NCBI RefSeq assembly: GCF_000010065.1
Contig: NC_006576.1
Location: forward strand, 1,830,001-1,862,000
DNA: 32,000 bases
From: Synechococcus elongatus PCC 6301
GTDB taxonomy: Bacteria > Cyanobacteriota > Cyanobacteriia > Synechococcales > Synechococcaceae
Direction: 5' to 3'
Below the pieces are notes generated by a model, which had not been told where the DNA came from, did no database searches, and saw only the letters and a program-made list of their open reading frames with translations. Position numbers and translations under genes: made by a program. Positions 1,477 to 29,924 of the stretch are shown one piece after another. Positions within the stretch are counted from its first letter, which is position 1, and each line of letters begins with the position of its first letter.

Positions 1477-1766
1477 ACAACGAAATAAGTCAGTCAACTT
1501 TGCTGTTCAGCGATAACCAGACGAAGTCACTGCCCAAATTCAAGGTTGGTAGTGATGGCATTGCAGTCTCTAATCTAGTTAGAACGCTGAATTTAGCTGA
1601 CAATCGTCCAAGACCAGGGGCAAGAGCCTCTGGCTCCCCTATCTTGAGACTATCTCAACTGAAACAAGGGCTATCACAGCCAATTTTAGTCAATCTTTGT
1701 GATGCGAAACTGAGAAAAACTGACCAAGAAACTCAAGAGCCAGCATAATTTGATTAACTCTTTTGA

Positions 1767-2588: not shown

Positions 2589-2605
2589 CTTCCTGAAACA
2601 TACCT

Positions 2606-2977: not shown

Positions 2978-3001
2978 CTCTTGGGCTCAAGCTGAAGGTT
3001 C

Positions 3002-4036: not shown

Positions 4037-4221
4037 AATCCTGCTCCCATCCCAGGGGCGGCACGCGCCCAATTGTTAAGCTTTGTGAGTCATTCAAGCC
4101 TAACGCAGCCTGATTGGAGCGTCATTTTCGATACGTCGCATTGATCAGGACGGTTTGACAGGCGCCAAAGCGGCGTCGGATAATCCCCTTTTGTGCAAAT
4201 TTCGAGCGCAGTCGAAAGACC

Positions 4222-5556: not shown

Positions 5557-5631
5557 GCGATCGGCTGCCGGTAAGAGAGACAACAGGCAAGGAGTCAATC
5601 CTCCTTGTCAAAAATCAATTTGAGTAAAATC

Positions 5632-6018
5632 ATGACCCGCCAAAATATTTCCTCCGGTTCCGCCTGGGAGCCTGTGCTGGGCTATTCCCGCGCCGTCAAG
5701 GTCGGACCCTACGTCCATGTCTCTGGCACTACGGCCAGCACCCCGGACGGCGTTGTTGGTCTGGGTGATCCCTACGAGCAAACCAAAGCAGCGCTAAAGA
5801 CGATCGCACAAGCACTGACAGAGGCGGGTGCCCAACTCTCTGATGTAGTGCGGACGCGGCTCTACGTCACGGATATTTCACGCTGGGAAGAAATCGGGAA
5901 AGCCCATGGCGAGGTGTTTGGGGAAATTCGTCCCGCCATGGCGATCGTGGAAGTGAGCCAATTGATCTCGCCGGAATTGCTCGTCGAAATTGGGGCGGAT
6001 GCCTACATCGGCGAATAG
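5632..6018 (+). CDS. RidA/YjgF/TdcF-family protein
   Basis: ATG at 5632 is preferred over the upstream TTG at 5605, giving 128 aa. The sequence ...VHVSGTTA...LSDVVRTRLYVTD...RPAMAIVEVSQL...LVEIGADA is typical of the endoribonuclease L-PSP/RidA fold. Confidence 0.85.
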   Translation: MTRQNISSGSAWEPVLGYSRAVKVGPYVHVSGTTASTPDGVVGLGDPYEQTKAALKTIAQALTEAGAQLSDVVRTRLYVTDISRWEEIGKAHGEVFGEIRPAMAIVEVSQLISPELLVEIGADAYIGE

Positions 6019-6040
6019 CTGCTCTCATCAATTCCCACAG

Positions 6041-6080
6041 CCCCTCAGGTTGCTTAACGCAATGGCCTGAGGGGTTTTTT
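6041..6080 (+). terminator. Intrinsic terminator between convergent genes
   Basis: CCCCTCAGG (6041-6049) pairs with CCTGAGGGG (6066-6074) around a 16-nt loop. TTTTTT follows directly (6075-6080). Confidence 0.65.
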
Positions 6081-6088
6081 GTCATTTT

Positions 6089-6901
6089 CTAGGGCACTGA
6101 CGCTGTGGATGGGGTTGGCAGGTTGTCCAAAAAACTAAGCGGCCGATTCATGGTGGCAGAAAAGCCAAGGATGCCGTGATCGCGATGCTCGTAAATTAAC
6201 TGGCGATCGCGATCGAACAGGAAAGTACCGCCGCGTTGGGTCATGTAGCTGGTATCAGGGACGTAAGTACGCCAATGACCGAGGGATTCCGCCATGTTGC
6301 GGAGGCGTAGCGTTGCCAATTCCATCGGTCGCTGGAAGCCAGAGCCGCCCGCAAGGTTAAAAAAGTTGCCTTTGATGGGTGGTAGCGGTGCAGCCTGTAC
6401 CGTTTCTTCGGCGGCAATGAGTTGGGGTGCACTGCGATCGCCGCGATAGCCCCGAAGCACTTCCGCCAACGTGCCGGGGCTACCAATGCCAGCACACATC
6501 AACAGCAGATTCAGCCAAGCCTTGGCAGCGGGGGAAAAGCCAGGAATTGACAGTTGTAGTCCCGGATAGAGCTCTAGTTCTTGATGCAAGCTAGCTGTGG
6601 GATCAACAAAGAGCTGATCGGCGGGAAAGCCGGTGAACTCGCAGAAGCGCTGGCCTGAGTCACGATCGCCAATGCCGACTGCGCGAATCGTCAGCCCAAG
6701 TTGCTGGATCTGATCCTGTTCTCGCTGCAACCACTGGGCATATTCCAAGCTGTCGAAGTCGCCCAACTGCGGCCAAATCAAGACCAGCAGGCGATCGCTG
6801 CTTTCAGTGCCAGCAAGGACTGGCGCGATCGCCCCATCACTGACCCGTTGACGCTGACAAGCCTGCAAGAGCGGGTAAGGGTTGATGGGTGCTGGAGTCA
6901 T
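6089..6901 (-). CDS. Thioredoxin-fold, peroxiredoxin-like (AhpC/TSA PF13911-like) protein lacking the CxxC cysteines
   Basis: The 340-aa six-frame ORF is trimmed to the ATG at 6901 (MTPAPINPYPLL...), because its upstream part overlaps thiO. Alternative starts are ATG 6931 and TTG 6868. The core LLVLIWPQLGDFDSLEYAQWL matches the position of the GCxxC motif in PRXL2-type proteins. Confidence 0.6.
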   Translation of the reverse strand: MTPAPINPYPLLQACQRQRVSDGAIAPVLAGTESSDRLLVLIWPQLGDFDSLEYAQWLQREQDQIQQLGLTIRAVGIGDRDSGQRFCEFTGFPADQLFVDPTASLHQELELYPGLQLSIPGFSPAAKAWLNLLLMCAGIGSPGTLAEVLRGYRGDRSAPQLIAAEETVQAAPLPPIKGNFFNLAGGSGFQRPMELATLRLRNMAESLGHWRTYVPDTSYMTQRGGTFLFDRDRQLIYEHRDHGILGFSATMNRPLSFLDNLPTPSTASVP

Positions 6902-7976: not shown

Positions 7977-8033
7977 GTCGCTTTCCGTATCCTCAATCTC
8001 CTAGTATGACGGCGGTTCCCAAGAAGTCAGGCA

Positions 8034-8429
8034 ATGGAGATTGCCGTTTTGCGTTTGCGACCGGGTCAGGATCTCAAACAAGCCCTGTGGGATTGGACAC
8101 AGGAACACCAACCCAGTGCGGCTTGCTTGCTTAGTGCGGTCGGCAGTCTGGATGCGGTTTGCCTGCGACTGGCCGGCGGCGATCGCCAATTCCAGCGACA
8201 AGAGCCTCACGAAATTCTGAGTCTGAGCGGCACCTTCTGTCTGGATGGACTGCACCTTCATCTCGCGATCGCGGATGCCACGGGCTAGGTCTGGGGCGGT
8301 CATCTGCTGGACGGTTGCCGTATCTTCACCACAGCAGAACTGGTGCTTGGGATCTTGCCCGACTGGCAGTTTGAGCGCCAACGCGATGCGCAGACGAGAT
8401 ACCCAGAGTTAGAGGCTAAACGTTTATGA
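8034..8429 (+). pseudogene. PPC/DUF296-domain protein gene interrupted by an in-frame TAG (8286-8288)
   Basis: 84 codons (MEIAVLRLRPGQDL...HLHLAIADATG) are followed by TAG. Another 46 in-frame codons (VWGGHLLDGCRIFTTAELVLGILPDWQFERQRDAQTRYPELEAKRL) then run to TGA at 8427-8429. Both halves together reproduce the full DUF296 pattern (HxH...G.v.GGHL...tTaE.v). Confidence 0.7.
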
Positions 8430-8441
8430 AATTTTTAAAAG

Positions 8442-9220
<779 letters not shown>

Positions 9221-9278
9221 CGCCTCCCCTACAGACTTGCGGGGAGGATGCCCTAAATTCGCCGATGGGCAACAGGAC

Positions 9279-9563
9279 CTAAGCTTTACTGGCTCGCGCC
9301 GATCGCAGCATTGCAATCAAGGTCTGGTGCGCGTCTTCGGAGTCCTGTAGCTCGTGGTCGAAGCTAACTTGCAGCGATCGCGATCCCGTGGCTTCCACCA
9401 CATCCAAAACCATGGCTGCTGGCGTAATGCCCGTCAGAGTCGCCGCCGTCGCTTCCGTTGCGCCGCCATAGACTTTGGCATAAACCAAGACCGCATCCGC
9501 ATGGTCTTCATTCATGTGGCGACAGATGCGATCGCTAACTGCTGAAGTGAGTGGATCAGCCAT
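9279..9563 (-). CDS. DUF2470-domain protein (haem-binding HugZ/GluTRBP C-terminal-like)
   Basis: 94-aa ORF. ICRHMNEDHADAVLVYAKVYGG is the characteristic DUF2470 opening motif. Confidence 0.75.
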   Translation of the reverse strand: MADPLTSAVSDRICRHMNEDHADAVLVYAKVYGGATEATAATLTGITPAAMVLDVVEATGSRSLQVSFDHELQDSEDAHQTLIAMLRSARASKA

Positions 9564-9655
9564 CGTTTTTTCCTCTGCTCAGGTCATTTAGAAGCGATCT
9601 TAGACCGGTCACTCGGCTGCTCTGCCTCTAGTCCTAGAAAGAGCTGCAGCGATCG

Positions 9656-9775
9656 CTAGGAAAGAACGTGGGCTTTGAGGAGCAGCGCACTGATCAGGCG
9701 ATAGCCACTGAAGCTGACAAAGCCTAGCAAGACAACAAAGAGAGCGACATTGAAGACATCGCGCAGGCGATCCAT
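9656..9775 (-). CDS. Candidate 39-aa single-pass membrane peptide (unassigned)
   Basis: It runs from the ATG at 9775 to the TAG at 9656-9658 and encodes MDRLRDVFNVALFVVLLGFVSFSGYRLISALLLKAHVLS. It has one hydrophobic helix and lies in an otherwise unexplained 308-bp gap on the same strand as both neighbours. There is no recognisable family, and it is below the ORF-track cutoff. Confidence 0.3.
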   Translation of the reverse strand: MDRLRDVFNVALFVVLLGFVSFSGYRLISALLLKAHVLS

Positions 9776-9871
9776 AGACAAATCCAGCTGAAATGCGCCC
9801 TCACTCTATCAAGCGATCGCGCTCTCACTCGGGTCGAGCAGCAATCCGTTATAAAGCTTGCGCTGAAGCCG

Positions 9872-10918
9872 TTAGCGACTGAGAAGTCCAGCAGGCAGTT
9901 GCATCGTGATGCAATGCAGTGAGCCATGTTGCTCCAGGAGTGGCCGACAGTTGATGCCGATCGCGAGGCGATCGGGGAAAGCAGCGGCGATTGCCGCGAT
10001 CGCCGCCTCATCTGCCGGATCGTTGTAAGTCGGTACTAAGACTGCGCCATTGATGACTAAGTAATTGGCGTAGGTTGTCGGCAAGCGCTGACCATCCGCA
10101 TCGAAGCAGGGTTGCGGCCAAGGCAAGGGAATCAAGTGGTAGGGCTGTCCGTCCGCCGCGCGCAAGGCTTTGAGTTCTGCTTCAAGGGCTGTTAGTTCTG
10201 CCGCATGACTGTCACTGGGATCGTCGCAGGCAACGTAAATCAGCGTGTCATTCGGTGCGATCCGCACCAGCGTGTCGATGTGGGCGTCCGTGTCATCGCC
10301 TTCCAAATGGCCATGCTCCAACCAGAGCAGGCGATCGCCCCCCAGTTGTCGCTGGATGATCTGCGCGATCGCCTCGCGGCTCAAGCCCGGATTACGATTC
10401 GCTTCCAGCAAACACTGACTCGTGGTGAGTAGGGTGCCGCGTCCATCACTTTCGATACTGCCCCCTTCAAAAATCAGCGGCACAGTTTCCAGCGGCGTGG
10501 TGCCAAAAATTCCTTGCTGCCAAAGTCGCCGTGTCACTTGGTTGTCGTGGTTGGCGGCAAACTTTAGGCCCCAGCCATTGAAGCCCCAATCCAGCAGTCG
10601 CAGCCCTGCTGGGGTTTCCACCGTCAGCGGCCCAAAATCGCGGCTCCAAGTGTCATTGGTGGGCAGTTCAACAATCTGAATGCGATCGCAATTCGCAGTG
10701 GTCTGCGCCAGTTGTTCTGCCACGCGATCGGGCTCTGGCGTCACGATCAGCAACTGCTCAAAGCGCGTCACTGCTTCCGCTAGGTCACGGTAGACGCGAT
10801 CGACCTGATCCAACAGCGATCGCCAATCACTGTCCGCATGGGGCCAAGCAATCAAAACACCGTCCTGCGCTTCCCATTCCGCTGGAAAACGGCGATCGCT
10901 CTGTTGCCCCTGACTCAT
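9872..10918 (-). CDS. aguA: Agmatine deiminase (PAD_porph family)
   Basis: Start trimmed to the ATG at 10918 (MSQGQQSDRRFPAEWEAQDGVLIAWPH), giving 348 aa. TWSRDFGP, FEGGSIESDG, DTDAHIDT and the C-terminal catalytic GSLHCITMQ match the agmatine deiminase pattern. Confidence 0.85.
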   Translation of the reverse strand: MSQGQQSDRRFPAEWEAQDGVLIAWPHADSDWRSLLDQVDRVYRDLAEAVTRFEQLLIVTPEPDRVAEQLAQTTANCDRIQIVELPTNDTWSRDFGPLTVETPAGLRLLDWGFNGWGLKFAANHDNQVTRRLWQQGIFGTTPLETVPLIFEGGSIESDGRGTLLTTSQCLLEANRNPGLSREAIAQIIQRQLGGDRLLWLEHGHLEGDDTDAHIDTLVRIAPNDTLIYVACDDPSDSHAAELTALEAELKALRAADGQPYHLIPLPWPQPCFDADGQRLPTTYANYLVINGAVLVPTYNDPADEAAIAAIAAAFPDRLAIGINCRPLLEQHGSLHCITMQLPAGLLSR

Positions 10919-16191: not shown

Positions 16192-17973
16192 ATGGATTCT
16201 GGACTCGACACCACCCTCCTGCTGATTGTGACCGTGGCTGCGGGTATTGCCGCGCAGGTCTTGGCCAGTTGGGCGAAGTTGCCGGGAATTGTCTTCCTGT
16301 TGCTGACTGGCTTGCTGCTCGGCCCCGATGGCTTGAACTGGGTGCAGCCTGAGCAGTTGGGGGAAGGGCTAGAGACCCTAGTCAGCCTCAGTGTGGCGCT
16401 GATCCTGTTTGAAGGTGGACTTAGCCTTGATCTGCGCAACCTCCTACAGGTATCGGGTAGCCTGCGCAATCTGATCACGCTGGGCGCGGGTATCACGATT
16501 CTGGGCGGTGCGATCGCAGCTCATCGCTTCAGTGAGTTTCCTTGGCCGCTGGCCTTCCTCTACGGCGCGATCGTCGTTGTGACTGGCCCGACGGTGACGA
16601 CACCGCTGCTGCGGCAAGTGCAAGCAGACCCCAAGGTCTCGACCCTGCTAGAAGGCGAAGGCGTCCTGATCGATCCGATCGGCGCGATCGTGGCTGTGGT
16701 GGTTCTCAACTTTGTCCTGAGCGGCAGTCAGGATGTGGGGTTGGTGCTGGAAGGACTGATCCTGCGGCTCGTCGTTGGGGCGATCGCGGGCAGTGTGGGT
16801 GGCGGACTGCTGGCACTGTTCCTCCGCCAAGTCCGTTTTCTCTCCGAGGAATTACGAACCCTCGTCGTCTTAGCCGCACTCTGGGCGATCTTTGGGGCAG
16901 CTCAAGCCGTTGTCAGTGAGGCGGGATTGCTGGCGGTGGTGATTGCGGGTTTGTTGCTGCGGGCTGTGGCGATTCCCGACTTGGAGGCGATTAAGACCTT
17001 CAAGGGACAGCTAACGACCCTAGCGATCTCGATTCTGTTTGTCTTGCTGGCAGCGGATCTCTCGATCGCGAGTCTATTTGCCTTGGGGTGGGGCGGCCCT
17101 TTGACTGTGTTGGCGCTGATGTTGCTGGTGCGCCCGCTCAGCATTGGCCTCTGCACTTGGGGCAGCGATCTGAATTGGGCGCAAAAGGCGTTTCTGAGCT
17201 GGATTGCGCCGCGTGGGATTATTTCCGCTTCGGTGGCCTCGCTGTTTGCGATTCTACTGACCGATCGCGGCTTAGCCGGTGGCGCAGCGATTAAGGCGCA
17301 GGTCTTTTTAACGATTTTGATGACGGTCTTCTTGCAAGGACTTTCAGCCAAGACCGTGGCGAAAAAGCTCGGTGTTTTGGATCGACCCGAGCAAATTGTT
17401 CTGGTTGGCGATGACCTCGAGCTACGACTGCTCGCCATCTTGTTGGAGCAAAACAAGCAGCCTCACCAAGCGATCGCTACCGTCCCAGAGGAACCTGACT
17501 GGGAGAGCGAGAGCATCACGCTGCTACTCGGTCGCGATCAGTCCACTCCTGCGGAGCAGACAGGGCTGACCGTGGTGGATCTCTGCCCACTCGACGATCG
17601 CGCCCATCTCTACAGCACCCAGATCAGTGCTGACCTTTGGCAGCAACGGTTACAGGAGCAGCGCTGTGAACTATTCCAAATTGAGCTGAGCGATCGCCAA
17701 GCCGTGCAGCAGTGGCAACAGGCGCTGGAAGCTGATCGGATTTTGCCCTTGCTGCACCAACGGGGGGAAGGCTGGGAACTCGCCCTTTTACCCGCCGTGG
17801 CGGAAACCGGCGATCGCTTTTGGGGATTGAGTCGCGATCGCCAGTTAGCGCTGGACGAGATTGAGTGGCAGGACTGGCCTGCCGATTGGTCGTCTAGCCC
17901 TGAGCCGCCGCGATCGCAGCCTGAAGACGCGGTTGAGCTTGCCCCGCCTGATGCAGCAACACCCAGCTCGTAA
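16192..17973 (+). CDS. Monovalent cation:proton antiporter (CPA1, NhaP-type) with a ~190-aa cytosolic tail
   Basis: 593-aa ORF with about 11-12 hydrophobic segments. [23 protein letters not shown] and [15 protein letters not shown] are typical of Na+/H+ exchanger family proteins. Confidence 0.85.
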
Positions 17974-19354
17974 GCAGATCGGGCCCCTGCATCGAACCCA
18001 TCAGGGCTGCCCGCAGCGATCGCATACCGATGCCTTTTTTGACACCGGCGGCTTTGACCGCTTGATCGATCAGCCCTTTCGCAACTTCGAGGGTCAGGGC
18101 TTCGCTGGGGAGTGCCTCAAGGATTTGCTGGAGCACTGCTTTACTGCCTGCTTGACCCAGTTGGGCGATCGCATCTTCTTGCAGTTCGATCCCCTGACTG
18201 AAGAAGAGCTGGCTTTGGCCGACGATATCCGTCAAGGTCACGAGGCTGGGACCCAAGAGAGTCGCCAATTCTTCCAGCCAAGCCGCAGGATAGGCTGCTG
18301 TATCGACCCCGGCCTTGCTCCAGAACGGTTGCAGCAGTGCCACCAACTCACTCGCGGATTTCTCCTTGATCACCTGACTGTTGAGCCAGTTGAGTTTGTC
18401 CCAGTCGAATTTGGCACCGGCTTTGTTGACGCGATCGAAGTCAAAGACGGTCGCTGCCTCCGCCAGACTAAAGCGCTCATCCATGCCTTCCACGGGCGAC
18501 CAGCCCAACAGGGTCATGTAGTTGGCGATCGCCTCGGGCAGATAGCCCAAGTTTTGGAAGTCGGAGATGGAGGTGACGCCATCACGCTTCGAGAGTTTGC
18601 GGCCTTCCTTGTTGAGGATCAGTGGCGTGTGCGCAAACTCGGGCACCGCAGCACCCAGCGCTTCGTAGAGCAGGATTTGCTTGGCGGTGTTAGCGATGTG
18701 GTCTTCGCCGCGAATGACGTGGCTGATCGTCATGTCGATGTCATCGACCACGACCGCGAGGTTGTAGAGCGGCTGACCGATCGTGCCAGCGGGACTGCGG
18801 CGGGCAATCACCATGTCGCCCCCGAGGTCACTGCCTTTCCAGACGACGCGATCGCGCACTAAGTCTGTCCAAGCGATTTCGCGATCGTCATCAATGCGGA
18901 AGCGAATCACCGCCTCGCGGCCTTCGGCTTGAAATGCGGCTTCTTGCTCCGGCGTCAGGTCGCGGTGGCGGTTGTCGTAGCGCGGGGCTTCATTGCGGGC
19001 GCGTTGCGACTCGCGCAGGGCTTCCAGTTCGGCTTCGGTGCAGTAGCAGCGATAGGCTTTGCCACTGTCGAGCAATTGCTGCACGGCGGCTTTGTAGAGG
19101 TCGAGCCGCTGGGTTTGGTAGAACGGGCCTTCGTCCCAGTTCAAGCCCAGCCACTGGAGGCCGGTCAGGATGTTGTCGGTGTATTCCGATCGCGATCGCT
19201 CGAGGTCTGTATCTTCGATGCGCAGGATGAACTGGCCCTGATGCCGCCGCGCAAACAACCAGTTGAAGACGGCAGTGCGGGCCGTGCCAATGTGGAGGTT
19301 GCCGGTGGGGCTAGGAGCAATGCGAACGCGAACTGACACAGTGATTTCCAACAA
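17894..19354 (-). CDS. gltX: Glutamyl-tRNA synthetase
   Basis: 486-aa ORF (TTG at 19354; alternative GTG at 19339). It has the HIGH motif [15 protein letters not shown], the KMSKS-type motif KLSKRDG, and [11 protein letters not shown]. Confidence 0.95.
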
Positions 19355-19434
19355 CGGGCTTCAGTTCTCGATCGTACGGTGTTGCGGCAGCTGCTTGTAA
19401 AGTCATCAACAAAAGGACTACCACTAGTAGCCAT

Positions 19435-21180
19435 GCTTTTAAAAATAGCTAAATCGCAACTATTTTATGATACTTTTTCCTCTTCAGGATTGACAGATAT
19501 ATACAATAGTCTCGAAGCAATTTAATTGTGATTGTCTAATTCCTTTTCAATAGCATCAATCAAATAATCAAAATTGTTATTGACATGTTTAAGATACTCT
19601 TCAATCGCTGAAGTCTGAATTACACTCTCATCTGAAGCAATTTCAGAAGCAATACACTTAGCATAGTAATGATGATCAGAAACGTTCTTATATTGAAAAA
19701 ACCATTCAACATCTAAATCATACTTTGACTTAAAAAAGGCCTTAACCGCAGAATGCTCAAAAACCTCTTTTTCCGGAGGCTTATTACCTGGAAAGGAATA
19801 TAAGCCTTCTTTCTCTGAAGGCCCAATATCTGCATCTCTAACAGCAATTGCTTTCTTTCCTGTTTTTTTAAGAATACGTACAGCTTCGCGAACTGCATCT
19901 GTGCTTCCAATAGCATGAATTTCTACTATTTTGAGCAGAGCTTTTCGTTTCATGCGTATAACTTCTATCAATAAAACCTTTGCAAAATTATCTTCGACAC
20001 ATATATCCAGTGATCGCACGTGACCAGAAGACAAGATAGATCGTAATTGACCTGAGGAAATCTTGTTTCTAATATCAACGCCACCCTCATCTCTGATCAT
20101 CAATTTTCTCGACTCAGGAGGTAGAGCATTAACAATCACACTAGAATGAGTTGAAAGTATTATTTGATGATGTCGCCTATTACATACGTCCAGAAGATAC
20201 TTTGCAAATTCATGCTGAGCGCTTTCATGAAGTGAGGTTTCTGGCTCTTCAAGGATAAAAAGACTTTGCTCTGGCGAACTCTCAAGCTTATCTATAGTAT
20301 ATAGAATACGTCCTTCGCCCAAACCCATATTATTTTCTGAGTAAGAATATCCAAGTCTGTAAGCTATACCTACTTCTGACTCTTTACCGTTGTGGGATAC
20401 TCCTTGGAATGCTACATTTTCATATTTATGACCTATGATTCTGGCCATTTTTTTTACAACTTCTGCTTCAATATCTCGTTTTTCAGTAAATTGAAGATTG
20501 ACGCCTGCATAAACACTTAAATCTCTACGTTCTACTTTTGGCAAATAAACGGTAAATCCGATATAGTAACAATACCTTTCAGGCTGTCTTTTATAGCCCG
20601 ACCAAGATGATTTTACTCGGGATACTGTAACTTCCTTAGGCTTTTGGTAATCGTCAGTCTCGTAGAAATAAACTACTTTTGCACTGTCAGATATTGGTTT
20701 TGGATCAGCTGGAGAAACTGGAAAAAAATCCTTAATATAAAGCCTTTTGTAGGTCATAGATTTATCTGGCTTCTTATATGCACAAATTGCTAGTTGACCA
20801 ACAGTACTCTTCCCCGATCCATTAAGCCCAGAAATAGCAGTTATGGGGAATTCAAGTTCAAGATCAGCCGACTGAACTCCTCGAAAGCCCTCAATATGTA
20901 CCTTTCTAAGGCAAGGCCCAAAGTTCTTGTGGCGATTTTTGGAATTGTATTTATTCCTTAATTCTTTAGTTTTGTCACTCATCTTGAAAGCTTGACTAAG
21001 TTAGTGGTTTTTTCAACAATTTTTACAGCTTAAATAATCTTGCTATCAGGTTATGCCTTAGTCTGCTTGGCAGCCTCATATTTGTAGCCAGTTATAGAAA
21101 AGACAGTTTTCAAATTTTAGCATTCTAGACTCTTTTTTGTGAAGCTCCTCTTAAGAAGAAAGTTGGTATATCAATTTCTT
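19435..21180. other. AT-rich, HIP1-free patch B: single-gene insertion
   Basis: GC falls to roughly the upper 30s% by eye. There is no GCGATCGC between about 19197 and 21343. The right edge abuts the SDR stop codon (21179-21181). The left edge lies about 80 nt upstream of gltX. Confidence 0.65.
19522..20982 (-). CDS. ABC/SMC-type ATPase fused to a Toprim-like C-terminal module (OLD-family-like nuclease candidate)
   Basis: 486-aa ORF. It has Walker A GLNGSGKST (aa 52-60), a signature-like MGLGEGR (aa 219-225), Walker B plus catalytic Glu LFILEEPE (aa 241-248) and an H-loop ILSTHS (aa 275-280). The C-terminus then has DICVEDNFAKVLL (Glu330) and IAVRDADIG (Asp383/Asp385), which resemble the Toprim E...DxD signature. 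Confidence 0.75.
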   Translation of the reverse strand: MSDKTKELRNKYNSKNRHKNFGPCLRKVHIEGFRGVQSADLELEFPITAISGLNGSGKSTVGQLAICAYKKPDKSMTYKRLYIKDFFPVSPADPKPISDSAKVVYFYETDDYQKPKEVTVSRVKSSWSGYKRQPERYCYYIGFTVYLPKVERRDLSVYAGVNLQFTEKRDIEAEVVKKMARIIGHKYENVAFQGVSHNGKESEVGIAYRLGYSYSENNMGLGEGRILYTIDKLESSPEQSLFILEEPETSLHESAQHEFAKYLLDVCNRRHHQIILSTHSSVIVNALPPESRKLMIRDEGGVDIRNKISSGQLRSILSSGHVRSLDICVEDNFAKVLLIEVIRMKRKALLKIVEIHAIGSTDAVREAVRILKKTGKKAIAVRDADIGPSEKEGLYSFPGNKPPEKEVFEHSAVKAFFKSKYDLDVEWFFQYKNVSDHHYYAKCIASEIASDESVIQTSAIEEYLKHVNNNFDYLIDAIEKELDNHN

Positions 21181-21836
21181 AGATACGGGTTGCTCGCGCT
21201 AAAGAAAGAACACAGTCAAGAATCGCTAGAAGATCACTCAGGGGAATCGCCTCACCACCTGTCAGATTAGCTGCTGCGAGATCCGCTAACACTTCTGGGG
21301 TACCCACATTTCCCGGATTAATCACCGTGACCCCAATCTGCTGCGATCGCAATTCTTCCCGTAAGGCGTGAACAACTCCCCGCAGCCCAAACTTCGACGC
21401 ACTGTTAGCAACCTCTCTTGCAGGAAAATTATCTCGACCCGAGAGAGCGCCCATAAAAACGATTTTGGGATTATGCGATCGCCGCAGTGCAGGCAGTAAG
21501 ACTTTCACCAAGCGAATCGGCGCAACAAGATTGACCGCAATTACCCGCGCAATATCCTCATCCGAACAGCTTTCAAAGTCATATTGCGGTGTAAAAGCAT
21601 GGGTTTCCCAAGTTCCGCCCATGTACAGCAGTGCATCGAGGCAATCCTCCCCGATCGCTCGAGCTACCGTTTCAACTCCGGCCAACTCCGATAAATCCGC
21701 TTGAATCCATTCCCCCAACTGGAGCCGCTGTCCGCGACACCGCCACAAGGCGATCGCACTGGTTAATAAAATGTTCTGCAACAGCAAGACCAATGCCACG
21801 ACTGGCTCCGGCCACGAGAACTGTCTTAAAAGACAT
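21179..21836 (-). pseudogene. Short-chain dehydrogenase/reductase gene with a +1-nt frameshift at a C5 run (21712-21716)
   Basis: The ATG at 21836 opens MSFKTVLVAGASRGIGLAVAEHFINQCDRLVAVSRTAAPVG, a canonical SDR TGxxxGIG Rossmann start. That frame stops after about 57 codons. The rest of the SDR (GEWIQADLSE...VAPIRLVKVLLPAL...INPGNVGTPE) continues in the frame of the 21179..21898 ORF. The span is 658 nt. Removing one G from the GGGGG run restores a 218-aa ORF. Confidence 0.75.
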
Positions 21837-21904
21837 GGCTGAATGCCCGCCGACTCAGGATTGCAAACCAATCTTGACACCAACACCTTGAAGGTCAATC
21901 AGGA

Positions 21905-24900
21905 TCAACCAGTGCCGTAGCCGCCACCACCGGGCGTAAGGATTTCAAGGCGATCGCCCGCTGAGAGGGTTACTTCCACGGTGCTTGGCAGAATTTCTTG
22001 GCTGCCATCAGCCCGAATCAAGCGATTTTCACCCGTTTGGCCAGCGCCTCCCCCCGCTAAACCAAAAGGCGCGACTTGGCGACGACTGCTGAGAATCGTG
22101 GCAGTCATCGGCTCCAAGAACTGCAGACGACGAGTTGCGCCATCGCCACCGGCATAGTGACCCGCGCCACCACTACCGCGCCGAATCGAAAACTCCTCCA
22201 GCAGCACTGGAAAACGCGACTCCAGCACCTCGGGATCGGTGAGGCGAGAGTTGGTCATGTGGGTTTGTACTACCGACGCACCTGCCCCTTCTTTGCCTGC
22301 CCCCGCACCGCCCGCGATCGTCTCGTAATACTGATAGCGATCGCTGCCAAAACTGAAGTTATTCATCGTGCCTTGGCTAGCAGCCAGCACCCCCAACGCG
22401 CCCCACAGCGCATCCGCGATCGCCTGCGAGGTTTCAACATTACCGGCAACCACGGCAGCCGGAGCTTGCGGATTGAGCAGACTGCGATCGGGGATCTGAA
22501 TCGTCAGGGGTCGCAGACAACCGGCATTAAGCGGAATCGGATGATCGACAAGACAGCGAAAAACGTAGAGCACGACGGCACGGGCGATCGCTGCTGGGGC
22601 ATTGAAATTATTCGGTTGCTGAGGTGAGGTGCCCGTGAGATCGAGTTGGGCTTCGCCGCGATCGCGATCGAGCGTCACGGTGACTTGAATCTGGCAACCA
22701 TCATCGAGGGGGCAAACACAGGTCGCTTGACCCGGATGTTCCGCCGCCAGTTGACGGATGGCTTGACGCACCGCTTGCTCAGCGTTGTCTTGCACATGCT
22801 GCATATAGGCCAAAACAGTAGGCAGCGTGAACTGCTCAACGGCTTGGATTAGGAGTTGTTGACCCGTGGCATTGGCAGCAATTTGCGCCTGAAGATCCGC
22901 CAAATTCTGGTCAGGATTCCGCGCCGGATAGGGCGACTGGCTGAGGCGATCGCGAATGGTCGTTTCGCGAAATTGCCCTTGCCGCACTAACAGCAAGCCA
23001 TCGAACAAAATGCCTTCCTGATCGATCGATTGACTCTGTGCCGGCATTGATCCCGGCGTCAAACCACCGATATCGGCATGGTGCCCGCGACTGGCGACAA
23101 AAAACTGGGGCTTAGTCTGACCCGCTAGAAAAACCGGCGTAATCACCGTGATATCCGGTAGGTGAGTGCCGCCCGCGTAGGGATTATTGAGGGCATAGAC
23201 ATCGCCAGGCTGAAGATCAGTGCCGACGCGATCGATCAAACTGCGGACGCTATCGCCCATCGAGCCGAGATGCACCGGAATGTGGGGCGCATTGGCAATC
23301 AGTTCGCCTGCTGCGTTGAAAAGTGCGCAGGAAAAGTCGAGGCGTTCCTTGATGTTGACGGAGCTAGCGGTGCTTTGTAGGGTCACACCCATTTGCTCGG
23401 CGATCGCCTGAAACAGATTGTTGAAAATCTCCAGCAGTGCTGGATCGACAGGAGCGGTTGCGGCGGCTGACCAATCGCGCTGCGGCAGTTCCACCGCCTC
23501 CAATAGCAGATCACCAAAGGAATTGAGGCTGGCAGCCCATCCGTGTTCGATCACGTTGGTGCCGGTTGGCTCCAGAATCAGCGCTGGCCCCAGAATGCGA
23601 TCGCCCGTTTGCAACGTCTGCCGGTCATACACTGGCGTGTCGTGCCAGCGATCGCCGCTGAACATGGGCACCGTGGCTTTGATCGGCGGTAGTCCCGATC
23701 GCGTCGGCTGAGACTCGGGTAATGCCGCCGCTGGCATTCGTCCGATCGCTTCTCCTTGCAGGGCGGCAATCACCAAAGGGCGATCGGGTTGCACAAAGCC
23801 GTAGCGTTGCTGATAGGCCTGCTCAAACAGAGCGGTAATTGCTGCGGCATCCTCCGCCCAAGACACCAGTAGCGCCGAATCCGTGCCCTGATAGCGCAAC
23901 TGCAGCGATCGCAGCAGAGTCACTTCCGTCAGATCCGCATCGCCATCTGCCTTGAGTTGCTCCAGAGCGCGTTGACTGAGGGCGATCGCCTGATTCTCCA
24001 GGGTGGCTAAGGTTTCCTCACTCAAAATTTGCTCGATGCTCACCTGCTGCAAGGCTCGGCGATCGGCCAAGCCCATGCCGTAGGCGGAGAGGACGCCCGC
24101 AAAGGGATGGATCAGAATCCGCCGCAGTCCCAACAATTCCGCCAAGCGGCAAGCGTGCTGACCTCCGGCTGCCCCAAAGCAGCAGAGCCAGTAATCGCTA
24201 AGATCGCGCCCGCGCTGCCACGACACTTTTTTGATGGCGTTGGCCATGTTGTCGAGAGCGATCGCCAGAAACTGCTCAGCCAACTGTTCAGGCTGGTAGG
24301 AGCGGCCTGTCTGCTGGGCGATCGTGGTGGCCAACTCCTGAAACGCCAGATTGACAGCTTCTGCATCCAAGGAGCGATCGCCAGTTGCACCAAAAACGGC
24401 TGGGAAAAATTGCGGCTGTAGTTTTCCGACTTGGATGTTGGCATCAGTGATGGTTAACGGCCCACCCTGTCCGTAGCCCTTCGGACCGGGATGCGCCCCT
24501 GCTGACTCTGGCCCCACCTGCAAGCGACCATCTTGAAAACGCAAAATCGAGCCGCCGCCCGCCGCCACGGTGTGAATATCCAGTAGCGGCACCTGAAGAC
24601 GGACGCCGGCAATTTCAGTCTGATAAACCCGCTCCAGTTCACCCGCGTAGTGGGCCACATCCGTGGAGGTGCCGCCCATGTCAAAGCTGATCAGGCGATC
24701 GCAACCAGCTCGCTGACTGACCGCGATCGCGCCGACCATACCGCCCGCTGGCCCTGAGAGAATGCTGTCTTTGCCACTGAAGGCAGAAGCTGTGGCTAGC
24801 CCACCGTTCGACTGCATGAATAGCAGTTGTGGCCCTTGCCCATTTGGACATAGCGCCTGACCAATGCGACCGACATAGCGACGCAGCACCGGCGAAAGAT

Positions 24901-25561
24901 AGGCATCGGCTACAGTCGTATCACCCCGCGCAATCAACCGCTGCAGGGGGCTGACTTGGTGCGAGACGGAAATTTGTGTAAACCCCAATTCTGTCGCGAT
25001 CGCAGCCAGTTGTTGTTCGTGCTGGGGATAGCGGTAGCCATGCATCAAGGCGATCGCGCAGGCGGTGCAGCCTTGGTCTTTTGCCTGTTGGAGTTGCTGA
25101 CGGATGATCTCCAGCTCCGTCAACGGTTGCAGAATCTCACCGCTGGCACTGACCCGCTCCGACACTTCAATCACGCGATCGTAGAGTGGCTCCGGTTGCT
25201 GGATGATCCGCGCAAAAATGTTGGGCCGATTCTGGTAGCCAATTCGCAGCGCATCGCCAAAACCCTGGGTGATCAGCAGCACGGTGCGATCGCCCTTCCG
25301 TTCCAGCAGCGCATTGGTGGCGACGGTCGTGCCCATCTTGACTGCGGCGATCGCCTCGATGGGAAGTGGATCTTCAGCCTGCAATCCCAAACAATCCCGA
25401 ATGCCTTGCAGCACGGCATCCTCGTAGCGATCGGGGTTCTCAGACAGCAGTTTGTGCGCCGTTAACCTGCCATCAGGATGCTGGGCCACAATGTCAGTGA
25501 AGGTGCCGCCGCGATCGATCCAAAACTGCCATTGACTGCCATTGGCGACCGGAGCGGGCAT
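21905..25561 (-). CDS. 5-oxoprolinase (ATP-hydrolysing), fused hydantoinase A/B (HyuA-HyuB) type
   Basis: Start trimmed to the ATG at 25561 ([26 protein letters not shown]), giving 1218 aa. It has the N-terminal hydantoinase_A motifs ([18 protein letters not shown]) and a C-terminal hydantoinase_B region ([20 protein letters not shown]). Confidence 0.9.
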
Positions 25562-26426
25562 AGTGAAGGAGAGACTGAAGACGAGCCTCTCCATTGTTGA
25601 GGATGCTGAGCTTGGCTCGCCACCTTTGGTTCTGCCCCGCCGTCCTGCCGTGAAGCGAGTGACCGATCCCAGCCGAGTCGAAGCCCTGCTGGCCGAATTG
25701 CGGCAGGAATTTGACCGCCTCCGCCAAGAACAGGAGCGCGGTCGCGATTTGCGATCGCTGTTGCGGGCAGTCTCAGTCGACGATCTGGCGCAGACGCTCT
25801 ATCAGTCGCTTGATCCGCAGCAACTAAAGCGACTGCAGCGCCGACTCGAAAGCTATCAATGTCAAGAAGAGGGATGGGACGAGCTAGAGCGAGACATTGA
25901 AAAGTTAGTGCCGCTGCCTTGGACGCTGATTCGGCAGTTCATTTTGGGGCTGGCTCAGCAAAAGTTTTCGATGGTGCATACACCCGAGGAGCTAGCAGCT
26001 TGCTTGGCCGATGAGTATGCAGTACGGCTTGATTTGCGCCAAAAGACCGATTGGTTTCGGGCTTGGGCACTCCTTCGCTACGGCCTCAGTGCGGGTACGG
26101 CGCTGAACAATCCGCCCCACAGCATCCACCAGTTTGTCGAGCAGGCGATGCAGTTTGGGGCGCAGCAACGGCGATCGCGATCGCAGCAAACCCAACAGCA
26201 GTATCAACCTCCTCGCGATCGCCAAGCTGCTAAGCAGCCCTCATCCAACGCTGAGATTCCAGCGGCAGCCACGGTTCTAGGCTTGCCTTGGCCGACTACC
26301 CTGCAAGAACTAAAAGCCTCCTATCGCCGCCTAGCCAAAGCAAATCACCCGGATCTGGGAGGTGATCCCGATCGCTTCCAACAAATTCAGTTGGCCTACG
26401 AAGAACTGCGATCGGTAATGCAGTAG
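25542..26426 (+). CDS. C-terminal J-domain (DnaJ-like) protein
   Basis: The ORF ends with [44 protein letters not shown], which includes the HPD tripeptide. There is no in-frame ATG near the 5' end. Candidate starts are TTG 25542 (overlapping the divergent oxoprolinase start), GTG 25650 and GTG 25659. The start is uncertain. Confidence 0.65.
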
Positions 26427-26695
26427 GGCCGACGAGATATTGAGACAAGCCAGCTGATTGGCTTCATCAGTGGATTGAGAACTGTTGGCAAAAGTAAAAA
26501 TTTAAGTGTTCAAAATCGTCTGAAATTGCTCGGTAGCGGCTGCAAGGCTTGATCAGCGTAAATCGAACAAATTTTTTATGGCAGTGAAAATTTGCAAAAA
26601 GAATTGGAGTTCCAAAATTCCTCAGTTACTTTCTGCTTAAGGCAGGTCGGCAGAACTTTCCTGTAAACCCGCTTGACTGAACTCACTTACTGACG

Positions 26696-27865
26696 ATGCA
26701 AAAAAAGTCTAAGTTTTTTCTGGGTTTGTTAGGCGTCATCACCTGTTTTGTCCTGATAGGTAGTTTCTGTTTGCCCTCATTGGCACAAACACAAACTTGG
26801 CGATCGCTTTCCAATGTTGTCTGGGGAAAAGACCTCCCTGCCTTTAGCTACCCATTCAGCAAGACGCCACTTGTGGACTACGACGGTGGCGTGACTAAAC
26901 AAGTGGGAACCTATAACTTTCCTGTTAGCAAAGGAATGGCTGGGGTCTACATGACTCTGAAGCCTGGAGCGATCCGAGAATTACATTGGCATGCCAATGC
27001 TGCAGAGTGGGCCTACGTCATTGAAGGACGAACACGAGTCACACTGACAAATCCAGACGGACAAGTTCAGATCGCCGATGTTGATCAAGGGGGGCTCTGG
27101 TATTTTCCCCGCGGCTGGGGTCATAGTATCGAGGGAATAGGCCCTGGTACTGCCAAGTTTCTGTTGGTTTTTAACGACGGCACTTTCTCAGAAGGAGCGA
27201 CTTTCAGCATCACAGACTGGCTCTCCCACACACCGATTTCTTGGGTTCAGCAAAACTTTGGCTGGAGTCAAGATGAAGTTGAAAAACTTCCCAAAAAACA
27301 AGTTTATATCTCTCGCTATAACCCAGAGGTTAAGCCACTGGATAAAACACAATCTAGAAACCCTAAAGTTTCTAGGATCGTTCTCCCTTATACCCATAAT
27401 CTTTTGGCTGAAAAGCCACGCACAAGTCAGGCTGGTAATACACTCAAGCTGGCAAGTGCTAAAGAGTTTCCTGCGAGCTTCAACATGGCAGGAGCTCTAT
27501 TGCGATTAGAGCCCGGTGCAATGCGCCAATTGCACTGGCATCCGAATGCCGATGAATGGCAATACGTCCTCAATGGATCGATGGATCTAGCCGTTTTTGC
27601 CTCTGAAGGAAAAGCGAGTATGAGCCGTCTACAGAAGGGTGATGTCGGCTACGTTCCTAAAGGCTATGGGCACGCGCTGCGCAATAGCTCTGATCAACCG
27701 CTAGATGTTCTCATTGTCTTTAATGATGGCGACTATCAAAGTATTGATCTCAACGACTGGATTATGAGTAATCCCAATACTGTGCTGGATGATGTCTTTC
27801 AGCTTTCTCCGCAGTTGTTAGATAAGCTGCCTAAAGAAAGTGAGATTCTGATTCCTCGTAGCTAA
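26696..27865 (+). CDS. Exported Mn-bicupin of the oxalate decarboxylase family (OxdC/MncA-like)
   Basis: 389-aa ORF with an N-terminal signal peptide (MQKKSKFFLGLLGVITCFVLIGSFCLPSLA). It has two cupin metal motifs, LHWHANAAEWAYVIEG and LHWHPNADEWQYVLNG. It is collinear, as far as I recall, with B. subtilis OxdC, including FLLVFNDGTFSEGATFSITDW against the OxdC lid region FLLVFDDGSFSENSTFQLTDW. Confidence 0.9.
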   Translation: MQKKSKFFLGLLGVITCFVLIGSFCLPSLAQTQTWRSLSNVVWGKDLPAFSYPFSKTPLVDYDGGVTKQVGTYNFPVSKGMAGVYMTLKPGAIRELHWHANAAEWAYVIEGRTRVTLTNPDGQVQIADVDQGGLWYFPRGWGHSIEGIGPGTAKFLLVFNDGTFSEGATFSITDWLSHTPISWVQQNFGWSQDEVEKLPKKQVYISRYNPEVKPLDKTQSRNPKVSRIVLPYTHNLLAEKPRTSQAGNTLKLASAKEFPASFNMAGALLRLEPGAMRQLHWHPNADEWQYVLNGSMDLAVFASEGKASMSRLQKGDVGYVPKGYGHALRNSSDQPLDVLIVFNDGDYQSIDLNDWIMSNPNTVLDDVFQLSPQLLDKLPKESEILIPRS

Positions 27866-27908
27866 GTGATTGAGCAGGTTGAATGAAGCATTGAACCCAA
27901 AGATCAAA

Positions 27909-29924
27909 ATGTCAAAACAAAAATGGGCCGTTCGTCTAGCTGTTATTGCTCTGGTTTTGGCCTTTTGGCAGGTTTTATCGCTATCATCCCCTGCTCGATC
28001 CCGTGAACTAAAAACGCTCAGCCTTGCTCCAGTTTGTTCAGTCAAACTGCAAGATCCTAAAGTCACGTGGCAACTGCCAGAAGACGTCGAAGGAGGCTTG
28101 TTACAGAAAAACTTTAATGTTGTTCAGCGAGCTGTGGATCTCTTTGCTTGGCAAGAGTTTATTGCTCTAAATTGGCCTGCAAAGGTAGGCGATCGCGGTC
28201 AACCGGATATTGCAGCAATCCTTGCGAAGGCTGGCCCTCGCGTTTGGGAGACTTGGAAAGAAGCCAGCGAAGTCTACCTGCCCAATAGCGCACTCCCTCA
28301 AGCCTGGAATCGCGGGCCAGCTCTGCCTGATGAAGTGGCCCCATCTGGAGCAACAAAGGTTCTCTTTAGGACTAGTAAGGTTGACGAGGTGTTGAGTGAT
28401 CAATTCCAACCAACTAAAGCTGATGGTGCTTTGCCTGGAACTTTAACGGATCAAAGAGGAAATCTTGTTCGCTACGAGATTCGTATGAACAAGACTCTAT
28501 TTGATTATGTTGTTGACAACAAACTCTATCAGGCAGAACAGCAGGCGAACTTCCCTAATCTCTCTGCTCCGGTAGGATCGATTCTTCTCAAAGCAGCTTG
28601 GCGAGAAGTCTTGCCGAAAGAGCGCGATCGCTTCTATACAGTGCCAGCCTACGTGAAAGATATCGAGGGTGATCGCTACCAAGAAAAGCTCATGGGTTTG
28701 GTAGGCTTTCATCTCATGACGAAGACGGCCAGTGCTCCCCAGTGGATTTGGAGTACCTATGAACAGATCGATAACGTGGAGGGTTTGCATCCTTCCTTCT
28801 TTAACCCTGATTGCCCCAACTGCCTCAAAAATCAGCAAACGCAGCCACAAGTACCCAATCAAATTACTCGTGAAACTCCTATCCCTGCGGTTGACCCTGA
28901 CTGCAGTCAAAAATCAGTCGCGATCGATAACATTGCTGCCCTGAACCGAGCCATGCAAAAGGGTCTAGGTGATTCAGTTTGGCGGCACTATCAGTTGATT
29001 AATACGCAATGGCCTGTCCCTTCACCGCAACCCTCTAGCCCTCCAACCGTCTTTAAGGTATTGCCGCCTATTTTGGCAAACACAACGATGGAGAGCTATA
29101 TCCAGAAAAGTTCCTCTTGCATGGGTTGCCATGCGATCGCTCGAACGACTAATACGCAGCAATATCGATCTGCAGATTTTAGTTTTACCTTTGCTGAAGC
29201 ACGGCCAGTCCTCAAAAACCCTCAAATTATTGCTCCTCCTAAGTCTCCCAACACAAAATGGGATCGGGAGAACTGGAATAGCATTTTGCGAGGCTATCTA
29301 ATTGCGAATAAAACCTATGAAACACTGCCCCAGTATGTTCCTCAGGCGAAACTTCACTGTGCTAGCTGCCATCTCAATGTTGGGGCAAATCCTACGGCCT
29401 CCTCTTGGTTTGGGATGATCAAAAAGTATCAATATCCAGAAACAGATGATTTGCAGAAGAGAATTAATTCCTGCTTTGAGCATAGCCTCAACGGCTTGCC
29501 GCTACCGTTGGAGAAATATAATCCAGAAGCTCAAGCTCTGATTACATATATGCAGTGGCTAGATCAGCAAGCTGCTCAGTCTAAAATTACGCTGCCTAAA
29601 ACAGCTTATCCAGATATTCAGAAGCTCGCTGGAAATCCAAAGCAGGGTCAAGAAATTTTTCAGCAGAAGTGTGCGTTTTGTCATGAGTTGAATGGTGCAG
29701 GCCGCTATGGAAGTAACACCTACTATCGACCTGCGCTGTGGGGTGATCAATCCTTTAATCGCTTGGCTGGGTTAGCACAGCCGGAGACTTTGGCAAAATT
29801 CCTGAAGTCGAATATGCCCTATCAGTTTGGGGGAAACTTGACAGATCAGGAAGCCTGGGATTTAGCCACTTTTATCGATCGTCAGCCTCGCCCACAAGGC
29901 CCCTACAAAGCGCCGAAGACTTAA
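27909..29924 (+). CDS. Membrane-anchored/exported tri-haem cytochrome c: unknown N-terminal domain + TsdA-like di-haem C-terminal module
   Basis: ATG at 27909 (an upstream TTG at 27870 is possible), giving 671 aa, 43 nt after the bicupin stop. It has an N-terminal hydrophobic anchor (WAVRLAVIALVLAFWQVL). There are three CxxCH motifs: CMGCH (29118-29132), CASCH (29358-29372) and CAFCH (29670-29684). The last ~250 aa match the thiosulfate dehydrogenase TsdA pattern (CASCHL..G...RINSCFEHSLNG; CAFCH..NGAG...PALWGDQSFN..AG...NMPY...LTDQEAWDLATFI). Confidence 0.85.
   Translation: MSKQKWAVRLAVIALVLAFWQVLSLSSPARSRELKTLSLAPVCSVKLQDPKVTWQLPEDVEGGLLQKNFNVVQRAVDLFAWQEFIALNWPAKVGDRGQPDIAAILAKAGPRVWETWKEASEVYLPNSALPQAWNRGPALPDEVAPSGATKVLFRTSKVDEVLSDQFQPTKADGALPGTLTDQRGNLVRYEIRMNKTLFDYVVDNKLYQAEQQANFPNLSAPVGSILLKAAWREVLPKERDRFYTVPAYVKDIEGDRYQEKLMGLVGFHLMTKTASAPQWIWSTYEQIDNVEGLHPSFFNPDCPNCLKNQQTQPQVPNQITRETPIPAVDPDCSQKSVAIDNIAALNRAMQKGLGDSVWRHYQLINTQWPVPSPQPSSPPTVFKVLPPILANTTMESYIQKSSSCMGCHAIARTTNTQQYRSADFSFTFAEARPVLKNPQIIAPPKSPNTKWDRENWNSILRGYLIANKTYETLPQYVPQAKLHCASCHLNVGANPTASSWFGMIKKYQYPETDDLQKRINSCFEHSLNGLPLPLEKYNPEAQALITYMQWLDQQAAQSKITLPKTAYPDIQKLAGNPKQGQEIFQQKCAFCHELNGAGRYGSNTYYRPALWGDQSFNRLAGLAQPETLAKFLKSNMPYQFGGNLTDQEAWDLATFIDRQPRPQGPYKAPKT

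Follow-up and report, generated by a model that had tools for sequence, protein, structure and literature searches.

Genes and features of the SDR-gltX interval

The window analyzed here is a stretch of 32,000 nucleotides (nt) from Synechococcus elongatus PCC 6301 (contig NC_006576.1, positions 1,830,001 to 1,862,000 of the forward strand). Our subject is an AT-rich patch of ~1.75 kb that separates the remains of a short-chain dehydrogenase/reductase (SDR) gene from gltX, the gene for glutamyl-tRNA synthetase. The patch contains one gene, referred to below as the cargo gene, whose product joins an ABC-type ATPase to a C-terminal TOPRIM nuclease domain. The features of the locus are listed in Table 1. 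An earlier description of this DNA, made from the letters and a list of open reading frames (ORFs) and called here the sequence-only reading, had regarded the patch as a foreign insertion wedged between SDR and gltX, with its gene transcribed in the same direction as the oxoprolinase, SDR, and gltX genes. The shared orientation was borne out, as all of these genes lie on the minus strand.

Table 1. Features of the AT-rich cassette and its flanks (window coordinates)
Feature	Coordinates	Strand	Basis
Variable AT-rich cassette, allele of the PCC 6301/PCC 7942 lineage	19397-21141	minus	Comparison with five other S. elongatus loci by blastn and MAFFT; limits good to ~10 nt
Cargo gene, 486 amino acids (aa), ABC-type ATPase with C-terminal TOPRIM nuclease domain, HEC-04 type	19522-20982	minus	Pfam, PADLOC, motifs, AlphaFold2 (AF2) model
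Candidate cargo promoter (TTCACA, 18 nt, TG-n-TAAAAT)	21114-21143	minus	Consensus match at 10/12 positions plus TG extension, best in 19250-21350
Terminator-like hairpin and T-rich tail (GGCTACTAGTGGTAGTC CTTTTGTTGA)	19406-19432 (hairpin 19432-19416)	minus	Pattern scan; RNAfold, -7.6 kcal/mol
Conserved block upstream of gltX	19340-19396	minus	Alignment, nearly invariant in six genomes
gltX, glutamyl-tRNA synthetase, GTG start at 19339, 481 aa as in orthologues	17894-19339	minus	Pfam tRNA-synt_1c, E 8e-101; orthologue lengths and alignment
SDR pseudogene	21140-21836	minus	Alignment with five intact 231-aa orthologues
Oxoprolinase	21905-25594	minus	

The sequence-only reading had also seen one gene and no integrase, transposase, tRNA target, or flanking repeat, and our searches agree. 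The ORF list contained no integrase or transposase ORF in the patch, no tRNA was found within 11 kb of it (the nearest is at 8441-8514), and a search for terminal direct or inverted repeats returned just short, chance-sized matches, none of them at either junction. An Rfam search around the patch gave no match. A classical integrase-mediated genomic island was considered and rejected, as the patch has no integrase ORF, no direct repeats at its ends, and no tRNA or other att target nearby.

Composition of the patch

The strong compositional break that had first drawn attention to the patch was confirmed by calculation. In 300-nt windows between 19350 and 21150, GC content was 0.32 to 0.39 throughout, compared with 0.55 to 0.64 on either side. 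Taken as a block (19396-21141), the patch had a GC content of 0.360, against a mean of 0.556 (standard deviation [SD], 0.041; minimum, 0.458) in background windows of equal size. The k-mer deviation that the sequence-only reading had proposed to compute placed the block far outside the background as well, both for the dinucleotide signature distance (109.6, against 59.2 ± 17.5 and a maximum of 95.6) and for the tetranucleotide distance (0.058, against 0.021 ± 0.004). GC content at third codon positions (GC3) was 0.265 in the cargo gene and 0.63 to 0.72 in neighboring genes.

The patch also lies in a gap in the distribution of HIP1 (GCGATCGC), which occurs 99 times in the whole window against a chance expectation of ~1. 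The gap runs from 19192 to 21343 (2151 bp), where ~5.7 sites would be expected (Poisson P(0) = 0.003), and the claim that HIP1 is missing for more than 2 kb is thus correct. However, this is the second-longest such gap in the window. The longest, at 3955-6203 (2248 bp), has a normal GC content (0.57), so the absence of HIP1 is not by itself diagnostic of foreign DNA. Delaye et al. (PMC3025956), whose search for xenologues in PCC 7942 was based on the scarcity of HIP1, raised the same caveat.

The cargo gene encodes an intact HEC-04-type protein

The cargo protein has the same sequence as BAD79903.1 of PCC 6301, and a single residue (L221F) sets it apart from ABB58422.1 of PCC 7942; going by the accession number, we equate the latter with Synpcc7942_2392. 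Pfam placed AAA_15, AAA_21, and AAA_23 on residues 25 to 285. The best PADLOC match was to HEC-04 (PDLC04149; E 1.8e-52, 176.6 bits), with residues 10 to 413 aligned to positions 12 to 406 of the 494-position model, and the PADLOC ATPase-Toprim_I-B model matched residues 239 to 459 (E 4e-18). Matches to AriA, GajA, Old, and PtuA were only partial; AriA, the next-best family, reached E 2e-24 over residues 156 to 284 only. Weak Pfam and NCBIfam matches to SMC_N, RecF, and Rad50 were confined to the Walker A region.

The residues expected of such a protein are all in place. The Walker A lysine is K58 (GLNGSGKST), Walker B comprises E245-E248, and the H-loop histidine is H279; the acidic residues of the TOPRIM domain are E330 (CVED) and D383 and D385 (RDAD, D383-x-D385). 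Every one of these is invariant in an alignment of 31 sequences, in which homologues are 58 to 76% identical. The ORF is full length, and no family-invariant residue has been lost. An AF2 model had a pLDDT of 72 overall and of 84 to 96 in the C-terminal domain. Ranked against the PDB, the model placed the Thermus OLD nuclease (6p74) first (E 1e-11), followed by Gabija GajA and the retron/Septu protein PtuA.

HEC-04 (Hma-embedded candidate 04), an ABC ATPase joined to a TOPRIM domain, protects Escherichia coli against phages that include T4 and T5 and is toxic when induced; its defence activity needs the Walker A lysine K62 and the TOPRIM residues E319, D375, and D377 (Payne et al., bioRxiv 10.1101/2024.01.29.577857). 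IbfA, a homologue of HEC-04 carried on an IncI1 plasmid, acts by an abortive type of interference (PMC12111858). Like these two proteins, the cargo is a single polypeptide in which an ABC ATPase at the N terminus is followed by a C-terminal TOPRIM domain, with a Walker A lysine and an E...DxD site, and at 486 aa it is close in size to the HEC-04 model. By motif and spacing rather than by superposition, K58, E330, D383, and D385 correspond to K62, E319, D375, and D377 of HEC-04. There are also differences, in that the last ~70 residues of the cargo fall outside the HEC-04 match and that, unlike HEC-04, the gene is not embedded in an Hma system and stands alone between two cyanobacterial core genes. 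Taken together, these results make the cargo a new and intact member of a single-gene anti-phage family that is already known and validated. By analogy with that family, it would be expected to act against phages in S. elongatus.

OLD class 1 nuclease (Thermus scotoductus, 6p74) and GajA share the ATPase-plus-TOPRIM arrangement with the cargo and were the best structural matches to its predicted fold (E 1e-11 to 1e-10), and a 60-residue Walker B/H-loop stretch aligns with them by sequence (E 2.6e-7). Overall identity to OLD and GajA is nevertheless only 12 to 15%, with TM-scores of 0.3 to 0.4 and different ATPase inserts, and the cargo has no helicase partner of the GajB type. HEC-04 itself is held by its authors to be structurally distinct from OLD, Gabija, and PARIS (bioRxiv 10.1101/2024.01.29.577857).

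Two related systems were considered and rejected as identities for the cargo. For Gabija, the cassette has a single gene and no UvrD-like helicase GajB, and GajA models covered ~50 to 80 residues with a best E of 1e-12. For PARIS (AriA/AriB), the AriA models were limited to the segment noted above, Pfam found no DUF4435, and the PDB match to AriA had an E of 0.14.

Relatives of the cargo protein

Outside S. elongatus, the closest relatives are proteins of 75 to 76% identity whose named sources are Gammaproteobacteria (Aeromonas, Shewanella, Pseudomonas, Paraperlucidibaca, Acidithiobacillus, and Methylomonas). Among the best 120 matches, none had another cyanobacterium as its named source. The Aeromonas homologue sits inside an island with tyrosine integrases, and the Pseudomonas homologue adjoins a ThsB-TIR-like gene. 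Family members also occur on plasmids of several phyla, the protein matches the phage protein family phrog_3940 (E 4e-81), and a Burkholderia phage carries a gene of 33% identity. Homologues on enterobacterial plasmids, possibly ibfA genes, are ~24% identical; the one whose record was inspected, on an IncF plasmid, is a 521-aa "AAA family ATPase" without a gene name. The cargo is thus an AT-rich defence gene in wide circulation.

The foreign origin that the sequence-only reading had proposed is supported by the extreme composition, by the noncyanobacterial nearest relatives, and by the absence of this gene from the locus in other strains. The refuting case that it had named, the same gene at this locus throughout the clade, was thus not encountered. 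The search for a donor that it had suggested did not succeed, however. The homologues are themselves low-GC aliens (0.43 in Aeromonas and 0.41 in Pseudomonas, within loci of 0.51 to 0.57), and their DNA is 72 to 73% identical to that of the window over the coding region only, so no donor lineage can be named.

The same interval in other S. elongatus genomes

We compared the window with five other S. elongatus genomes (L081 to L085), reached through the SDR orthologues P0122 to P0126. In all five, an intact SDR gene (231 aa) and gltX flank 1.5 to 2.5 kb of DNA with a GC content of 0.357 to 0.390 and no HIP1, within flanks of 0.56 to 0.59. None of them has the cargo gene of the window at this locus. 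The six genomes hold five unrelated contents, the one shared content being that of L081 and L085, whose cassettes are 99.5% identical. The empty site that the sequence-only reading had proposed to look for by aligning related strains was not found among the six genome types. Instead, the interval of every other genome is filled with different AT-rich, HIP1-free DNA between nearly coincident junctions, and the picture of a single insertion wedged between SDR and gltX is not supported.

These alternative contents were diverse. L082 carries a DUF5131 protein and a TcmP/GMT-wHTH protein, which match both genes of the PADLOC candidate system PDC-M30 (E 6e-102 and 3e-30). L081 and L085 encode a 407-aa protein once a 1-nt indel is repaired, with full-length homologues of 405 to 415 aa in many phyla. 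UniRef names two of its relatives Apea-like HEPN, and an R-N-x3-H motif is invariant in the family; Pfam was silent on it, and Foldseek returned no PDB match for its high-confidence model. L083 (8933-10300) encodes a 455-aa protein with an HEYTH (HExxH) motif read from the translation, and L084 (9031-9951) encodes a 176-aa protein, whose N-terminal part looks membrane spanning by its hydrophobic segments, followed by a 127-aa protein. The L083 and L084 proteins had no meaningful match in Pfam, PADLOC, NCBIfam, or PHROGs, and no cargo protein of any allele matched an integrase or transposase family.

It is also worth recording that L081 and L085 each have their own 1-nt indel in an A-run (9196 and 9765 in L081 and the same region in L085), which splits the 407-aa gene differently in the two strains (296 plus 115 aa and 100 plus 279 aa). 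These indels are either independent decay or homopolymer sequencing errors.

We also looked for the SDR-gltX arrangement outside the species. A gltX scan of genome contigs returned cyanobacteria only, at no more than 69% identity, with S. elongatus not among the loci, and in none of these 80 gltX loci of other cyanobacteria was the SDR gene present within 10 kb. The adjacency of SDR and gltX therefore seems to be species specific, and there is no outgroup that could supply an empty site.

Junctions and exchange between strains

On the left, the 88% homology between the window and the other strains stops at 21142, where the ancestral SDR stop codon starts, as judged by blastn and MAFFT. The right-hand homology picks up again at 19396-19388, ~50 nt before the GTG of gltX. 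The patch seen by the sequence-only reading is real, but its ends shift by ~40 nt. It begins at the ancestral SDR stop rather than at the premature stop (21179-21181), and it ends ~50 to 57 nt upstream of gltX, counted from the GTG start, rather than ~80 nt.

The left breaks are staggered. Those of the window and L082 are at the stop codon, L081 and L085 break ~30 nt later, a stretch that they have in common with L083 and L084, and L083 and L084 share ~45 nt. Across the genomes, the junctions are thus a few to ~45 nt apart, which argues against a fixed att site.

The clearest evidence of movement comes from L081 and L085. These two differ at 8 positions over ~1.6 kb (L081 coordinates 8608-10232), a tract that consists of the last 89 nt of SDR, the cassette, and most of the gltX leader and that ends ~24 nt before gltX. 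Beyond the tract there are ~4 to 6 differences per 100 nt. A nearly identical cassette tract within divergent flanks indicates that the cassette moved between lineages, with crossovers in the adjacent conserved sequence. More generally, pairwise identity along the flanks (8.7 kb to the left and 6 kb to the right) was mosaic and dropped toward the hotspot. Among L081 to L085, it was 91 to 96% in SDR (8001-8696) and 92 to 97% (99% for one pair) in the first 3 kb on the gltX side, and 98 to 99% beyond. Different strain pairs also showed mosaic blocks of 100% identity.

Signals inside the cassette and the leader of gltX

The extended -10 element that the sequence-only reading had placed at 21114-21122 of the minus strand is present as claimed (TGCTAAAAT, 21122-21114) and is the best promoter-like match of the region, with TTCACA upstream at a spacing of 18 nt. 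The -35 hexamer of this candidate promoter spans the left junction, and a 160-nt leader precedes the cargo ORF. At the other end, the terminator-like hairpin lies 3' of the cargo gene and before gltX, ~10 to 20 nt inside the right junction. The cassette of the window thus looks self-contained, with a promoter-like site, a leader, one ORF, and a terminator-like hairpin, although these signals are putative and come from pattern matches.

The conserved block upstream of gltX holds a -10-like hexamer, TACGAT (19376-19371). It is possible that this is the -10 element of gltX, in which case the right junction would fall at the -35 position. The sequence-only reading had raised the possibility that transcription of the cargo reads through into gltX. 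If the conserved block is indeed the gltX promoter, read-through could still occur, but gltX expression would not need it.

A probable defence hotspot, refilled by recombination in its flanks

The insertion mechanism, which the sequence-only reading had left unexplained, now has a good candidate in allelic replacement of cassettes by recombination in the conserved flanks. We consider it probable that the patch is one allele of a small, integrase-free core defence hotspot between SDR and gltX, occupied here by a HEC-04-type gene and exchanged by flank recombination. The interval shows what is expected of a core hotspot, namely, shared SDR and gltX flanks in six genome types, five unrelated contents, low GC, and no mobile-element hallmark genes. 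Lack of integrase, att repeats, and tRNA, together with the staggered junctions and the L081/L085 tract, fits homologous allelic replacement with occasional illegitimate joins. A cassette would then arrive without an integrase or transposase, and strains would swap cassettes by recombination within the 3' end of SDR on one flank and the gltX leader of ~50 nt on the other. Natural transformation is the most plausible route of delivery, as S. elongatus is a naturally competent species.

Once in place, the cargo protein might act in the manner of HEC-04, IbfA, OLD, and GajA. On that analogy, its ATPase module would sense a cue derived from the phage. Binding or hydrolysis of ATP would license the TOPRIM metal site (E330, D383, and D385) to cut nucleic acid, and the cutting would block phage replication, possibly at the cost of the host cell, as in abortive infection.

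The closest precedents for the slot are cDHS1 and cDHS2 of Pseudomonas aeruginosa (PMC10250203), which likewise have constant core flanks, strain-variable content, lowered GC, and no obvious mobile element. For those core defence hotspots, homologous recombination through the conserved flanks was proposed but not tested (PMC10250203). The SDR-gltX slot differs from them in size, at 1.5 to 2.5 kb and one or two genes compared with a median of 26 kb, and in its setting, a competent cyanobacterium in which one flank is an essential aminoacyl-tRNA synthetase gene whose putative promoter region abuts the junction. Unlike in the P. aeruginosa hotspots, a recombination tract ending less than 100 nt from a cassette is visible here.

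Three other explanations were weighed. A one-off, recent, illegitimate insertion into a short SDR-gltX spacer of the PCC 6301/7942 lineage, with the contents of other strains as independent accidents, would account for an extreme and unameliorated composition, for staggered left junctions, and for a patch with no mobility genes, repeats, or tRNA. We regard it as unlikely, as the interval is occupied in all six genome types with junctions within a few to ~45 nt of one another, no empty site was found, and a cassette common to two strains with divergent flanks implies exchange between strains. Slightly less likely still is that the cassette is the remnant of a site-specifically integrated mobile element (a satellite, an integrative element, or a prophage moron) whose integrase was later lost. 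The integrase-bearing island around the close Aeromonas homologue, the phrog_3940 match, and the Burkholderia phage gene would suit such an origin, but none of the six alleles holds an integrase or any other mobile-element protein, neither an att-like direct repeat nor a tRNA was found, and the alleles are just 1.5 to 2.5 kb long with staggered rather than fixed junctions.

The remaining explanation concerns function rather than arrival. The cargo might not serve defence in this host at all, being instead a selfish or inert passenger (for example, a silent toxic nuclease) or a housekeeping DNA-repair protein of the SMC/Rad50 kind. The toxicity of induced HEC-04 in E. coli (bioRxiv 10.1101/2024.01.29.577857) would be in keeping with a silent toxic gene, and the IbfA authors speculate on other roles for distant chromosomal homologues (PMC12111858); the weak SMC_N, RecF, and Rad50 matches, limited to Walker A, point in the same direction. 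Nevertheless, the ORF is full length with all family-invariant residues present, the strong matches are to defence and not to repair families, and the variation of the gene from strain to strain is incompatible with a housekeeping function. We judge this the least probable of the three.

Several observations weigh against the hotspot reading and limit how far it extends. PADLOC matches were obtained for two of the five cargo types only (HEC-04 and PDC-M30 A and B), one other type is tentatively HEPN, and two have no annotation of any kind, so that the case for a "defence hotspot" does not cover the slot in full. The sample comprises six genome types, and two metagenome scans for the conserved gltX-leader junction sequence gave no match. 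Recombination is seen for one cassette pair (L081/L085) and not for the cassette of the window. As for the protein, its AF2 model is of middling quality where the ATPase inserts lie, with the overall pLDDT of 72 and TM-scores of 0.3 to 0.4, and our search of the literature and transcriptome supplements for Synpcc7942_2392 found no phage assay or expression entry.

A broader proposal goes beyond the hotspot reading, and we offer it tentatively, as somewhat more apt to fail than to hold. In it, the slot would be a dedicated miniature exchange site at which diverse AT-rich, HIP1-free defence cassettes, each running from promoter to terminator, are swapped through transformation and recombination in the flanks, and the contents of L083, L084, and L081/L085 would be unrecognized anti-phage systems.

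Significance

Neither the gene family nor the idea of such hotspots is new, whereas this instance appears to be undescribed. The SDR-gltX locus is not treated in the main text of a comparative genomics study (PMC9239245) or of a study of genomic islands (PMC3025956).

S. elongatus PCC 7942 is a workhorse for work on circadian rhythms, photosynthesis, and synthetic biology, and its phage-defence repertoire has been little studied. Placing Synpcc7942_2392 and its PCC 6301 twin in a validated single-gene defence family gives them a testable function. The slot also offers a compact and genetically tractable case for how integrase-free defence hotspots refill, a question that the P. aeruginosa work left open. 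In addition, the three unannotated cassettes (L083, L084, and L081/L085) are flagged as candidates for new defence genes, and for strain engineering the locus is of interest as a site beside an essential gene that evidently tolerates foreign DNA.

The SDR pseudogene and the flanking genes

The "decaying" SDR gene of the sequence-only reading is a true pseudogene by comparison with the five intact orthologues. It has two lesions, a 1-nt T insertion at 21718 that shifts the frame after ~codon 39 and an AAA-to-TAA nonsense change that creates the premature stop (21181-21179). At the ancestral stop position (21142-21140), the window has TCA where the other strains have TAG. The remaining SDR protein is still 93 to 94% identical to its orthologues, which suggests a recent loss. 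The same frameshifted ORF was found in 30 blocks of the Logan collection of run assemblies, of which 24 contigs were read, and so the frameshift is not a sequencing error. In all six Logan places shown, the layout of SDR plus cargo was the same.

Synteny with L081 to L085 breaks exactly at the SDR start codon (21836-21905 in the window and 7880-8000 in L081 to L085). Upstream of SDR, the window has the oxoprolinase gene, and the other five genomes have GAF-HD, DUF3307, and CHASE2-cyclase genes. SDR is therefore a 0.7-kb islet of homology between two breakpoints. Its GC3 is low (0.45), and its protein is 84 to 88% identical to SDRs of distant cyanobacteria.

At its 3' end, gltX shares 80 nt (17894-17973) with the convergent Na+/H+ exchanger gene on the plus strand (16192-17973), and this overlap is called in the other strains too.

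Other stretches of unusual composition

The longest HIP1-free stretch of the window (3955-6203) takes in purA (4222-5556), a RidA/L-PSP gene (5605-6018), and part of a separate gene for adenosine deaminase. A second stretch that is both low in GC (0.445) and free of HIP1 covers 1.5 kb at 1458-3006, with an SPFH/Band-7 gene on the plus strand (1767-2588) and a gene with a bacterial PH domain on the minus strand (2606-2977), and may be an older acquired segment. Moderately low GC contents (0.44 to 0.47) were also seen at 26300-28200 and 29000-29900, where the genes are a bicupin gene (26696-27865) and one (27870-29924) for a protein of 684 aa that carries a cytochrome c domain at its C terminus.

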